From IMG/VR virus record IMGVR_UViG_2778261689_000004: a stretch of 12,400 nt of DNA. One strand, given 5' to 3'. Source of the DNA: a virus (taxonomy: Duplodnaviria > Heunggongvirae > Uroviricota > Caudoviricetes). Under the pieces are notes generated by a model. It was given only the letters and a program-made list of their open reading frames with translations, searched no databases and was not told the DNA's origin. Made by a program: the position numbers and the translations under genes. This document shows, piece by piece, positions 4,012 to 12,400 of this stretch (position 1 is its first letter; every line of letters begins with the position of its first letter).

Positions 4012-4292
4012 GAGATTGTGGTGCTTTTTGTGGGAGTCATCCACTTACGCACTTTGTTTTGCCATGCCAGCAGTTAGCTTCTGCTGTAAAACTATTCATG
4101 CAGCAAACCTGCACTTCACCACAATGGTTAGCATACTTTTCCTGATTAAGATTTTGCCAAATATGCTAGCCATTGTTTCATGTATTGGACCTCCTTACTT
4201 TTTATTAAAGAGATCCAATATTCACTACTCTGTCCGTATCTCTACTCAGGCATCAGCCTTCTTCGTTATCGTATACAGACGAGCGATGAATT

Positions 4293-4508
4293 TTAATCAG
4301 TAATGATGACATTTGCTGCTGCAGGACCTTTAGCACCACTCTCTATAGAGAAGGTAACCTTTTGACCTTCAAATAAGGTTCGATAATTATCATTCTGAAT
4401 CGCAGAAAAATGCACAAACACATCTTTACTACCATCAACAGGAGAAATAAAGCCGAAACCTTTATCAGCGTTAAACCATTTTACTAAACCAGTCATTTTA
4501 TTTGACAT
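4293..4508 (-). CDS. cspB: Cold-shock protein CspB (CspA family), 71 aa
   Basis: [38 protein letters not shown]...; AGGA ribosome-binding site; 5' UTR contains GCCGAAAGGC (plus-strand reverse complement at 4528-4537), which I recall as the cspA-family upstream box. Confidence 0.95.
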
Positions 4509-4675
4509 TCTACATTCCTTAACTTGAGCCTTTCGGCATAAATGGTTTGCATAACAGAAACGACTTCGTACTTAATTGGAGAGACTCAAAGAAGGAATAA
4601 GTGAATAACACCTGAAATGAGAACTGCTTTAGTAAACTACTTCGTATATCGTCTGTTCTTCAAACCGACGCAATC

Positions 4676-7052: not shown

Positions 7053-7208
7053 TTACTCCTCAGGTTCGTAAGCTGTGAAGACAGCGACCTCCGTCTGGCC
7101 GGTTCGGATTCGTACCTCGCAGAGGTCTTTCCTCGTTACCAGTGCCGTCACTATGACGGTTAAACAGATGACGATCAGGGCGATTAACATCGCCTTTTGC
7201 TGCTTCAT
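7053..7208 (-). CDS. hokD: Hok-family type I toxin HokD (RelF), 51 aa (below the ORF-track cutoff)
   Basis: Hand translation gives MKQQKAMLIALIVICLTVIVTALVTRKDLCEVRIRTGQTEVAVFTAYEPEE; AGGAG ribosome-binding site upstream; immediately downstream of relE. Confidence 0.9.
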   Translation of the reverse strand: MKQQKAMLIALIVICLTVIVTALVTRKDLCEVRIRTGQTEVAVFTAYEPEE

Positions 7209-8878: not shown

Positions 8879-10719
8879 GTGGGGACAGTCCACAAAACTG
8901 CCAACTTCCGCTTCTTGCTCTTAGCGGACATTAGCATAGGCTATTTACCATAACGCCTCATTACGCGCACCGCCCAGACTGACTCAGCGCGTTTCTGGCA
9001 TATCCCCGGTAAAACAAGTAACAAACCACCCGAAAATGAACACCAGAAACGCGACTTAAGAATCTACCCTATGAATGGATATGCACTCAACCGAATCGAT
9101 CTTGGTTTCAATCTTTTTTATCGGGATCAGGCTTCTTTTTAGGTAACTTCGGGGGCTTAACTTGCTGATGACTTTGCGTTCGGCGCGTAAGCCAGGGATG
9201 GTCAGCTTTAGGTTTAACATAGTATTTTGAGCGTAAATCAATACGGGCATTATCCACTCGTTCATGGACACTCTTTTCATCATCCAGTGGTATAGGCTCC
9301 GGGCCATCAACATACTTTTCCCAGCCCAGCGCTTTCCCGTCATACAGAACGTTAATTTCACCGTCAAAGTTCTCGCATACAGTAACAACCGAATGCCTAA
9401 GTCGATATCCCCGGCCCTCACTGCGTACCTGAAACGCACTGCTTTTGTACTGGAAAGTGAGATTTTTAGACAGAACGCGCTTCGCCTGTAGGCTGAAGAT
9501 ATAACCCAGTTCCTCTTCAGAATGGTGCACATCAAGATGAGCATTATCAGTAGTACGAGGCGACGTAGCGAACCGGTTGTTATAGGCTTCAATAAAGGTC
9601 GGCAACCATGCATTTGCTGTTTCAATATCACTGATATTCTGAAGCCGCATTTCTTTGACCAGCCTGTCCTGTAGTGTCTGATTGGCGCGCTCTACCCGCC
9701 CTTTTGCCTGCGGGCTGTTGGCATGGATTGGCTCGATGCCCAGTGTCTTTATCGCACGAGTGAACTGGGTCAGCTCACCTTCCCGCTCTGGGTTATTTAC
9801 CCTGAATATACTGTGTCTATCAGAGTAGAGAGCGAGCGGTACGCCATGATCATTAAGGTAACCCCGGAGGGTTTCCATGTAAGCCCGGGTTGTTTCAGCA
9901 GGCACAAAACGCAACGCCATCAACGCACTGGTGGCATCATCAATGAAAACGATCAGTGTACATCTGGGGCCTCGATTTTCAAACCAGTCATGAGGTGAGC
10001 CATCAATCTGGATCAGTTCACCGTAAGATGGTCGTCGCATGCGGCGTTGATATATACGGGCAATTTTACGACGGCGTTCACGCCATAACCCCTCTTCTAT
10101 CATCCACTTTCTGAGAGTTTCAACGGATAAAGATAAACCGTGTATCTCGCGCAATTTTTCGCACGCAAACGTAGGTCCAAAATCAGCGTAACGGCCTTTG
10201 AGGAGTGAAATTACTGTTGCTCTGAATTCAGTAGAAAAGGAATTATTAGGACGCTTTCCACGTCGGTGGGAAACCAGACCAGAAGGCCCTTCATTTCTAT
10301 ACCGTTGCACCAGACGTTTAACCTGCCGAATAGAAATGCCAATGCGTGCCGCAGCTTGTTCCTGAATAATCTGAAGTCGGTGGAGTTCCTTATGACTCAT
10401 CGTAACAGTCTCTTTGATCATGAAAAATCCCCCAGAGAATTGTCTGGGGACATTTTAGAATGGTTCAAAGGGGACATTACAGCTTGGTGTTAACAATAGC
10501 CTGCTTCTCCGTGCCTTTCGGCACGTAAGAGGCTAACCTACATGTGTCTAGCATGAAATTGGCCTCAGATTAATGTTAAGCGTCTTGCAGGACGCGTAAT
10601 GTTAACTGGGGCTTTTCTCTATCTGCCGTTGGTGTCCATGCCCGAGGCAGATAGCCTCAAGCACCCGCAGTCATTCTACTTAACTAAGATTTCCCCGCAA
10701 ACCGTTTTTGTCCAGCACA
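8879..10719 (-). mobile_element. IS-like element carrying one DDE transposase gene; ends tentative
   Basis: The 437-aa transposase (9108-10421) is flanked by unusually structured non-coding DNA. Tentative termini are TGTGGGGACA at 8879 and the reverse complement TGTG-CT-GGACA ending at 10719; this short imperfect match is all that supports them. No clear target-site duplication found. Confidence 0.3.
9108..10421 (-). CDS. DDE-type transposase (rve integrase core with N-terminal helix-turn-helix; IS481 / ISNCY-IS1202-like), 437 aa
   Basis: N-terminal HTH-like region (IGISIRQVKRLVQRY), candidate catalytic residues in LIQIDGSPHDWFE, LYSDRHSIF and KGRVERANQTL (D, D, E with downstream basic residues), basic C-terminal tail. 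Not one of the K-12 insertion sequences I can recall. Confidence 0.85.
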   Translation of the reverse strand: MIKETVTMSHKELHRLQIIQEQAAARIGISIRQVKRLVQRYRNEGPSGLVSHRRGKRPNNSFSTEFRATVISLLKGRYADFGPTFACEKLREIHGLSLSVETLRKWMIEEGLWRERRRKIARIYQRRMRRPSYGELIQIDGSPHDWFENRGPRCTLIVFIDDATSALMALRFVPAETTRAYMETLRGYLNDHGVPLALYSDRHSIFRVNNPEREGELTQFTRAIKTLGIEPIHANSPQAKGRVERANQTLQDRLVKEMRLQNISDIETANAWLPTFIEAYNNRFATSPRTTDNAHLDVHHSEEELGYIFSLQAKRVLSKNLTFQYKSSAFQVRSEGRGYRLRHSVVTVCENFDGEINVLYDGKALGWEKYVDGPEPIPLDDEKSVHERVDNARIDLRSKYYVKPKADHPWLTRRTQSHQQVKPPKLPKKKPDPDKKD

Positions 10720-10755
10720 GTAAATATCCAACTAAACCAATGGAGTTCGCTGTAT

Positions 10756-10935
10756 TTACCGCCAGTATTCAATGCACATGACCGCCATGAACACCCCTAA
10801 AAAAAGGGCATTTATATATCCAAATATTAATATCAAAACATCAACTTTTTCCATATACCTTGCTGTGAAGATGATGGGCATACATGATGCGAACAACCAG
10901 AACGCAACAAACAAAAACTGCAATGCGTTTTTCAT
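10756..10935 (-). CDS. Small membrane protein with two predicted transmembrane helices, 59 aa
   Basis: ATG at 10933-10935 preceded by a perfect AGGAGG 6 nt upstream; MKNALQFLFVAFWLFASCMPIIFTARYMEKVDVLILIFGYINALFLGVFMAVMCIEYWR has two hydrophobic segments. The track ORF extends to a GTG at 10974 with no ribosome-binding site. Could correspond to the K-12 ydfW/intK-region ORF, unverified. Confidence 0.5.
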   Translation of the reverse strand: MKNALQFLFVAFWLFASCMPIIFTARYMEKVDVLILIFGYINALFLGVFMAVMCIEYWR

Positions 10936-11398
10936 TATTCCTCCTACAATCAATGTGCAATTACATTTAAACACACCTCAATTTGGCCGGACATATAAAT
11001 ATCTAAACCAGAAAAAATCACTTACATAGCGTTACAAACTCTTTAGTCTAAAGGTTCATCGTAAAACATTCCCCATACTTATCAGTCCGTTCCGCGCCAG
11101 GTAGCTCATTGCCTTATCTGGCAACCTGTAATCAGGTTTCCGCTTTTTCAGTTGGCTGGTCGTTTAACCGACATAGTTAATCCATTAATCTAGTTGCCGG
11201 ATGTTGGTGGATTTTCGCGTTTTAGTTGTTCATAAAAGTGCACAGCTTTAACCAGTTCTTCTGATGTAACTGGGACTGGTGAGGCAGTGAATAAGGCCTG
11301 AATTTGATAGTTCGGCCTGTCGTTACAATCCTCTTTTTTCGGTACATATTTCCAGTCACCAGACCACTACTTCCCCTGAAAGTCCGTAACGCCTTTTT

Positions 11399-11695
11399 TC
11401 ACGTAGGCTCTTTTGGTCGCATGATCTCGCCATCATCACTGGCTGCCTGTTCGTAGAGACCCACGATCCGCCCCCAGATCCACTGCGCACACGCCAAATC
11501 CTCCCTGCTAACGCCAAGCGCTCGCTGATCAATCGCGCCACCTTCATATGTGACACGCTGAACATCGATGTTCGGGCGCTCTTTCAAAGCCCAGAATGCT
11601 TCAGTGATTAATATCGTCGCCTGCTCCTGTGTCATTCCTGGTCGACATATCCAGGCATCCAGAGCCTCACGAGCCTGTTCAGGAGTGATTTTCAT
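11399..11695 (-). CDS. Hypothetical prophage protein downstream of dicC (YdfX-like), 98 aa
   Basis: ATG-initiated ORF overlapping the 3' end of dicC by 17 nt, suggesting translational coupling; position matches ydfX of K-12 Qin as I recall. Confidence 0.55.
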   Translation of the reverse strand: MKITPEQAREALDAWICRPGMTQEQATILITEAFWALKERPNIDVQRVTYEGGAIDQRALGVSREDLACAQWIWGRIVGLYEQAASDDGEIMRPKEPT

Positions 11696-11909
11696 TGTTC
11701 AACCGCCCCGCCCGCTTCGTCTTACGATATTCATCATAAACTTTGGGATCATACTGAAGCTCCCCGCCAGATGCCTCCTGTAGACGCATCGCGCGACCTT
11801 CGGGAACTAAATCCCCTTTCCAGCTATAAAGCGAAGCCAAACGAATACCTGCTGCTTGTGCAAGTTTTGTTTTTGAACCGAAATACAAAAGAGCGTCAGT
11901 TTTAAGCAT
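11679..11909 (-). CDS. dicC: DicC, Cro-like regulator of the dicB division-inhibition operon, 76 aa
   Basis: MLKTDALLYFGSKTKLAQAAGIRLASLYSWKGDLVPEGRAMRLQEASGGELQYDPKVYDEYRKTKRAGRLNNENHS matches DicC as I recall it; AAGGTG ribosome-binding site; divergent from dicA. Confidence 0.95.
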   Translation of the reverse strand: MLKTDALLYFGSKTKLAQAAGIRLASLYSWKGDLVPEGRAMRLQEASGGELQYDPKVYDEYRKTKRAGRLNNENHS

Positions 11910-11923
11910 TTAAAACACCTTTA

Positions 11924-11990
11924 TTGTTAGTCATAACTAACAAGATAGATGTTAACAAAAACATAGTCAATACGATTTAGCATTAGCTAA
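11924..11990. promoter_or_regulatory. dicC-dicA divergent control region with two related operator-like palindromes
   Basis: TTGTTAGT-CATA-ACTAACAA (11924-11943) and TTAGC-ATTA-GCTAA (11977-11990) share the core TTAG(T/C)-N4-(A/G)CTAA and sit about 50 bp centre to centre; a TGTTAACA palindrome lies at 11950-11957. Confidence 0.5.
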
Positions 11991-11992
11991 CT

Positions 11993-12400
11993 ATGGAAAC
12001 AAAAAATTTAACTATCGGCGAACGCATCAGGTATCGTCGGAAAAACCTCAAACACACCCAAAGGTCTCTTGCTAAAGCCCTGAAAATCTCCCATGTGTCT
12101 GTATCACAATGGGAACGGGGTGATAGTGAACCTACAGGGAAGAACCTTTTTGCCCTCAGTAAAGTATTGCAATGCTCACCAACATGGATTCTATTTGGCG
12201 ATGAAGACAAGCAACCAACACCACCTGTTGAGAAGCCAGTTGCCTTATCCCCCAAAGAACTAGAGCTCCTTGAGCTGTTTAATGCACTGCCAGAATCAGA
12301 ACAGGATACCCAGCTCGCCGAAATGCGAGCTCGAGTAAAAAACTTCAATAAACTCTTTGAAGAATTACTAAAAGCCCGTCAGCGGACAAATAAAAGATAA
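11993..12400 (+). CDS. dicA: DicA, HTH (Xre/cI-like) repressor of dicB, 135 aa
   Basis: METKNLTIGERIRYRRKNLKHTQRSLAKALKISHVSVSQWERGDSEPTGKNLFALSKVLQCSPTWILFGDED... matches DicA as I recall it; TAA stop at 12398-12400, so complete; no ribosome-binding site upstream. Confidence 0.95.
   Translation: METKNLTIGERIRYRRKNLKHTQRSLAKALKISHVSVSQWERGDSEPTGKNLFALSKVLQCSPTWILFGDEDKQPTPPVEKPVALSPKELELLELFNALPESEQDTQLAEMRARVKNFNKLFEELLKARQRTNKR

Follow-up and report, generated by a model that had tools for sequence, protein, structure and literature searches.

The 83 bp which separate the divergent genes dicC (− strand) and dicA (+ strand), positions 11910-11992 of the window (the whole stretch of 12,400 nucleotides that was analysed), are very probably the OR-type control region of the immunity module of the Qin prophage, with a layout like that of P22 immC. 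Two related palindromes lie in this spacer: palindrome 1 is the published DicA operator Oc, and palindrome 2, next to the dicA start codon, is a candidate operator in the position of OR3. The literature already covers the locus, the main operator, the bistability and the nearly leaderless dicA transcript, and the reading of the spacer in a preliminary description, which was made from the sequence alone, has proved to be accurate. The operator names Oc, Om and Oa used below are said to go back to work by Bejar in 1986 and 1988 and by Cam in 1988.

The genes on either side of the spacer encode a Cro-like regulator and a repressor. dicC (11909..11679, − strand) appears in the list of open reading frames and in the RefSeq annotation and encodes 76 aa which match the Pfam family P22_Cro (PF14549) with 44.1 bits against a cut-off of 30.2. 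dicA (11993..12400, + strand), likewise present in both the open reading frame list and the annotation, encodes a P22 C2-like HTH repressor of 135 aa with the Pfam domains HTH_3 (1.3e-16) and Phage_CI_repr, and the DicA N-terminus is 58.7% identical to that of P22 C2 (tblastn). Divergent genes for an HTH repressor and a Cro-like protein with a short spacer between them, one hallmark of a P22-type OR switch, are found at this locus, and both Pfam scores exceed their cut-offs. According to megablast, E. coli K-12 derivatives carry the interval 11600-12400 with 100% identity as ydfX-dicC-dicA in their Qin cryptic prophage, and at least 80% of the same interval is present in 843 complete E. coli genomes. 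The dicC-dicA intergenic region of K-12 Qin (Yun 2012, Ragunathan 2023) is the same locus: identity is 100% over 11509-12400, there is no difference inside 11910-11995, and both genes are 100% identical to their K-12 counterparts, whereas upstream of ydfX the present strain has 2.2 kb of extra DNA.

Several observations concern this extra DNA and the rest of the window. The K-12 derivative ER1709 has 91 bp in place of the 2216 bp at 9293-11508, which EC-07 and LD27-1 match at 100%, so that K-12 appears to be deleted between ydfW and ydfX. An uninterrupted open reading frame of 437 aa with transposase/integrase-like sequence runs through 9108-10421 (− strand); in RefSeq (EC-07) the frame is divided between a 49-aa “ydfW” and a pseudogene annotated as a partial “ISNCY family transposase”, and ydfW of K-12 looks like the C-terminal remnant of the 437-aa gene. 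At 10495-10666 (− strand), in DNA without an annotated feature, there is a match to Rfam RF01794, “sok antitoxin (CssrC)”, with 104 bits against a gathering threshold of 59. No Hok-like open reading frame was found near this match, and no sok match alongside the annotated hokD (7053-7208). Two matches to the cspA-type thermoregulator, at 1382-1767 (− strand, 113 bits, cspI) and 4277-4669 (− strand, 159 bits, cspB), span the 5' leader and coding sequence of prophage cold-shock genes, as is expected and known.

Palindrome 1 (TTGTTAGTCATAACTAACAA, 11924-11943) is a perfect inverted repeat with 8-bp arms and a 4-nt spacer (8+4+8) which is equivalent to OR1 and covers the dicC start site as well as the edge of the -10 element of the dicC promoter (dicCp). 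When the 83-bp spacer was shuffled 5000 times with its dinucleotides preserved, 117 of the shuffled sequences (2.3%) contained a perfect inverted repeat with 8-bp arms. Comparison with the published operator mapping, proposed as a check in the preliminary description, identifies palindrome 1 as a proven DicA operator, as it is letter for letter the Oc sequence that was cloned before rpsL and through which DicA represses in vivo (Yun 2012, PMC3441716). In the same study a single A>C exchange in the right arm (Oc*, at the base equivalent to 11939) abolished DicA binding and repression, and the wild-type spacer could not be maintained on high-copy plasmids because it titrates DicA (Yun 2012, PMC3441716). 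A Reg-Seq preprint of 2025-26 describes the same titration of DicA and gives -8..+12 of dicCp as the position of the DicA site. Variation in Oc across 88 related loci is confined to the central 6 bp, and the arms TGTTAG/CTAACA are fixed, including the base which is hit by the published Oc* mutation. Natural variants of Oc, found at locus L069 and related loci, combine T>C at 11931 with A>G at 11936; this is a symmetric change of the innermost arm pair, which leaves the dyad intact. The operator of the dicB promoter (dicBp) likewise has a G at the position matching 11936.

The promoter scan places the -35 element of dicCp at 11965..11970 (− strand, TTGACT, reading AGTCAA on the + strand), with GTCAA invariant in eight of eight aligned family members, and the -10 element at 11942..11947 (− strand, TATCTT); a -10 overlapping Oc has been described (Yun 2012). 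Published statements put the dicC start site at about 11935 (− strand), which gives a 26-nt leader, because Oc extends from -8 to +12 and the -11 A of the -10 was counted from the start determined by 5'RACE (Yun 2012). The hexamers from the scan (11970-11965 and 11947-11942) fit this start site. The Shine-Dalgarno (SD) sequence AAGGTG that had been ascribed to dicC is present at 11921..11916 (− strand), 6 nt upstream of the dicC ATG, and forms an anti-SD duplex of -3.9 kcal/mol. Both dicCp and the dicA promoter (dicAp) are sigma-70 promoters, the former strong and the latter weak. They interdigitate: about 55 bp separate their start sites, and the -35 of dicCp falls within the spacer of dicAp, which implies that two polymerases cannot occupy dicCp and dicAp together. 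The corresponding start sites of lambda PR and PRM, by contrast, are about 82 bp apart.

Palindrome 2 (TTAGCATTAGCTAA, 11977-11990, in an 18-bp frame at 11975-11992) is a perfect inverted repeat with 5-bp arms and a 4-nt spacer (5+4+5). The centres of the two palindromes, 11933.5 and 11983.5, are 50 bp or about 4.8 helical turns apart, and both palindromes contain the core TTAG-N6-CTAA, which bears out the earlier description of two related palindromes some five turns from each other. This core occurs twice in the 12.4-kb window against 0.22 occurrences expected, both times inside the dicC-dicA spacer, and when the 49 bp that follow Oc on its right were shuffled, a second copy appeared in 371 of 200,000 cases (p ~0.002). 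The symmetry of palindrome 2 on its own is not above chance, with at least two repeats of 5-bp arms in about 20% of spacer shuffles; its significance comes entirely from its relatedness to Oc and not from its own symmetry. Beyond the window there is a third copy of the core, TTAGTCATGGCTAA, which is placed between the -35 and the -10 of dicBp, a promoter known to be repressed by DicA.

The position of palindrome 2 complicates the interpretation of its conservation. It spans dicAp from -13 to +1 and thus holds the -10 element TAGCAT, the discriminator and the start site. Among the 88 loci it is near-invariant, with only two substitutions, both of which fall in the central N6 and leave the arms untouched. 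As the entire dicA-proximal half of the spacer is conserved in these loci, conservation does not single out palindrome 2, and could be explained wholly by the role of the element as promoter and start site. Palindrome 2 aligns base for base with OR3 of P22, which abuts the c2 ATG, and on this alignment it is the positional homologue of OR3. It is equated here with the Oa of the literature, which is probably correct. DicA has been reported, as data not shown, not to bind isolated Oa or Om (Yun 2012, PMC3441716); an assay with isolated operators would miss cooperative binding, and that assay covered DicA. The literature searched contained no DicC-DNA binding experiments on the dicC-dicA spacer, and the search for later binding studies of DicA or DicC gave nothing beyond Yun 2012. 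DicC is the likely ligand of palindrome 2. Of the paired operators claimed in the preliminary description, palindrome 1 stands as a proven DicA site, whereas palindrome 2 is a candidate operator, so that the proof covers one of the two.

The comparison with P22 can be made in more detail. According to the annotation of P22 in GenBank, OR1-OR3 end at the base that precedes the c2 ATG and the -10 of PRM (TAAGAT) lies 9 nt before this ATG, the same offset at which Qin has TAGCAT; the 5' nucleotide of the PRM transcript is given 4 nt before the c2 ATG within AACTATG, and AACTATG is identical in Qin. Placing Qin in the P22 frame gives operator positions at 11925-11942 (Oc), 11950-11967 (middle position) and 11975-11992 (palindrome 2), with centres 25 bp apart as against 23 and 25 bp in P22. 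In both regions the genes for the cro-like protein and the HTH repressor diverge, there are three 18-bp operator positions whose centres lie 23-25 bp from each other, OR1 overlies the start site of PR, the -35 of PR is AGTCAA and OR3 abuts the repressor ATG. They differ in their half-sites, which are ATTTAAG in P22 and TGTTAG in Qin, with the G one base further out in Qin; this implies a different immunity specificity. They also differ in the repressor itself. No S24/peptidase domain was found in the 135 aa of DicA, for which the Pfam search returned HTH domains only, and unlike P22 C2, DicA has no LexA-type cleavage domain that would allow autocleavage and is controlled by the antirepressor Rem instead of RecA, a control which is published as RecA-independent. 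The lack of S24 together with Rem control places the locus in an antirepressor-controlled subclass of P22-type switches.

The middle position is degenerate in Qin, unlike in P22. The candidate middle operator (TGTTAACAAAAACATAGT, 11950-11967), assigned by positional homology to P22 OR2, has one good half-site only, the left TGTTAA, which is Oc-like; it is here that we infer the name Om to belong. Of the three operators expected at a spacing of about 2.3 turns, two sites at the OR1 and OR3 positions thus share a core and the OR2 position contributes one half-site. The middle position also contains a 5+6+5 inverted repeat, ATGTTAACAAAAACAT, at 11949-11964, and inside it an 8-bp self-complementary sequence, TGTTAACA, at 11950-11957. 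The arms of this repeat, TGTT/AACA, are the outer arms of Oc, placed 4 bp closer together.

Diverged relatives of the switch were reached by tblastn with DicA, as a search of the spacer DNA against phages returned a single record, which was identical. The DicA-like relatives come from Citrobacter (73% identity), Serratia (64%), PPompW (63%), a Stenotrophomonas phage (62%), mEp460 (58%) and phiES15 (52%), to which P22 c2 can be added with 59% over the N-terminal domain; a DicA scan of species genomes yielded six loci only, two of them without a homologous spacer. In the alignment of eight family spacers the invariant elements are GTCAA (the -35 of the rightward promoter), TTA..T.A and the ATG. 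In seven of these eight a TAnnAT element precedes the ATG by 8-9 nt; in phiES15 it lies 3 nt closer, at 6 nt. The core TTAG-N6-CTAA is kept in both O1 and O3 in the relatives from Citrobacter, the Stenotrophomonas phage and PPompW; in Serratia it is kept in O3, with O1 one base off (TAAG). The Stenotrophomonas phage vB_SmeS_BUCT709 (locus L090, 296-394), whose DicA homologue is 62% identical, has the exact Qin half-sites TGTTAG-N6-CTAACA in its O1 and a spacer of the enterobacterial type, and the listing of Stenotrophomonas as its host is unexpected for this immunity type.

Transcription of dicA begins inside palindrome 2, at the edge of the gene. The published start site is 1645954 and the coding sequence is given as starting at 1645957, with a leader of 3 nt (Romero 2014, Table S3, PMC4681348). 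The leader is possibly 4 nt, because the reverse-strand rows of Table S3 suggest that the gene start on the forward strand is zero-based. This puts the start at 11989 or 11990 (+ strand), an A either way, with a leader of 3-4 nt reading (A)ACU. The start belongs to class I in differential RNA-seq, which denotes a triphosphate 5' end, and was checked by TAP-dependent RLM-RT-PCR (Romero 2014, PMC4681348); dicA is also listed among the known leaderless genes with a 5'UTR of at most 5 nt from Rend-seq 5' ends (Lange 2022, PMC8794815). The leaderless or short-leader mRNA that the preliminary description had suggested is hence borne out by three kinds of published data, and the published mapping does not put the start far upstream behind a functional ribosome-binding site. 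The companion claim that dicA lacks an SD sequence near its ATG also holds: within the 25 nt upstream of the ATG none was found, the best anti-SD duplex having +0.3 kcal/mol. The in-frame stop codon TAG at 11984..11986 (+ strand), 9 nt upstream of the ATG, means that there is no longer N-terminal frame and no upstream start codon; a longer dicA frame or an SD-led upstream start is ruled out by it. The ATG at 11993 is further fixed by homologues, which align from residues 1-7.

The -10 element of dicAp, TAGCAT at 11978..11983 (+ strand), precedes the published start by 6 nt and ends 9 nt before the ATG. For the -35 element two candidates were considered and rejected: ACAAAA at 11955-11960 has the canonical 17-bp spacing and is unconvincing, while TTAACA at 11952-11957 is the better hexamer but at 20 bp from the -10 is too far away. 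The promoter scan returned no + strand promoter, and published remarks also describe the dicA promoter as one without a recognisable -35 (Yun 2012). Reg-Seq saw no RNA polymerase footprint within its dicA window. In having a repressor mRNA that starts at or a few nt before the AUG, with no SD sequence, and a -10 embedded in the repressor-proximal operator, dicA resembles lambda cI transcribed from PRM, racR, ymfK and paaR2; it differs from lambda cI-type leaderless mRNAs in its leader of 3-4 nt as against 0 nt. Initiation independent of an SD (70S-type) has been published for the analogous paaR2 and for lambda cI. A usable SD was found in none of the eight aligned relatives. The Stenotrophomonas phage and mEp460 have AAGG-like strings some 20 nt upstream; these were considered as ribosome-binding sites and rejected, as the -10 lies downstream of them and they fall within the region of the PR -35.

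The published behaviour of the two regulators supports the earlier reading of the locus as a cI/Cro-like bistable switch. DicA at Oc represses dicC and is required for the activity of the dicA promoter, and dicC rises 700-fold when dicA falls 10-fold (Yun 2012, PMC3441716). About 1% of cells are reported to switch on dicBp spontaneously, in a DicC-dependent manner, and overexpression of DicC lowers dicA mRNA in O157:H7 (Pan et al. 2019). How palindrome 2 and Oc contribute to this behaviour can be explained in more than one way.

Palindrome 2 might be nothing other than the dicA core promoter, its dyad a relic of a P22-like OR3 which neither DicA nor DicC uses, so that the switch runs on Oc alone and on the competition of overlapping promoters. 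This would agree with the reported failure of DicA to bind isolated Oa or Om, with 5-bp arms that are not above chance in an AT-rich spacer and with a left arm that doubles as the start of the -10. In Serratia, moreover, a C>T exchange improves the -10 (to TAGTAT) while breaking the inner symmetry, and with start sites 55 bp apart polymerase at dicCp must in any case exclude polymerase at dicAp. What a promoter does not account for is the right arm: the -10 does not require CTAAC, yet this sequence matches the Oc half-site in five of five positions at the correct 6-bp spacing (p ~0.002). The same core recurs at dicBp, the O3 arms equal the O1 arms in several relatives, and DicC-dependent repression of dicA needs some site, and Oc alone would lead to repression of dicC and not of dicA. 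A palindrome without operator function is rather unlikely for these reasons. Palindrome 2 would also be dispensable for positive control if DicA activates dicA directly from Oc by contacting RNA polymerase, in the style of lambda CI at OR2, which is the model of Yun 2012. The dependence of the dicA promoter on DicA, its lack of a recognisable -35 and the empty + strand promoter scan are what such a model would lead one to expect. Activation by the P22 and lambda repressors comes from OR2, which adjoins the -35; the dicA start, on the other hand, lies about 56 bp downstream of the centre of Oc, and Oc is by positional homology an OR1 and not an OR2, which makes direct activation from Oc geometrically odd. 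The same data fit equally well with a relief of the occlusion caused by the strong overlapping dicCp, and also with cooperative filling of the half-site Om (11950-11967), which assays on isolated operators would miss. Direct activation from Oc is rather doubtful.

A further explanation concerns the mRNA: dicA could be translated mainly from a longer, leadered upstream transcript, which might stem from read-through or from a PRE-like promoter beyond dicC, with the species carrying the 3-4 nt leader being a processing product. An establishment promoter for a leadered repressor mRNA does exist in both lambda and P22 (PRE is annotated in P22). Since the start mapping was triphosphate-dependent (class I start, TAP-dependent RLM-RT-PCR), the processing product is unlikely, and the start has a conserved -10 at the proper distance. 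A long leader would moreover be of no help with no SD within 25 nt, and the region of a cII-like activator is degraded in Qin (ydfX pseudogene). Taken together, a leadered main transcript is very improbable indeed.

The preferred reading, that of an OR-type switch with two related operators, can be put as a mechanism. DicA dimers on Oc, over the dicC start site, shut off dicC, and DicA on Oc is needed for dicA transcription; both steps are published. The dicA mRNA with its leader of 3-4 nt would then be translated without an SD, by analogy with lambda cI and P22 c2 transcribed from PRM. As palindrome 2 holds the -10, discriminator and start site of dicA, any protein bound to it would block dicA transcription. 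The Cro-like DicC most likely represses dicA through palindrome 2, and DicA may also use this site, at high concentration or cooperatively. Such action of DicC and DicA at palindrome 2 would give the bistability that is seen experimentally.

An even simpler arrangement is conceivable, though distinctly unlikely, in which DicA uses Oc only, palindrome 2 is dedicated to DicC, and the “activation” of dicA is the clearing of polymerase from dicCp. If this stripped-down switch is true, 19 bp would accommodate the operator together with the -10, the start site and the start codon, and one DicC dimer would silence dicA. For the biology of the Qin prophage, palindrome 2 marks the place at which the action of DicC would be required if the switch is to be thrown and the toxic dicBF operon released.
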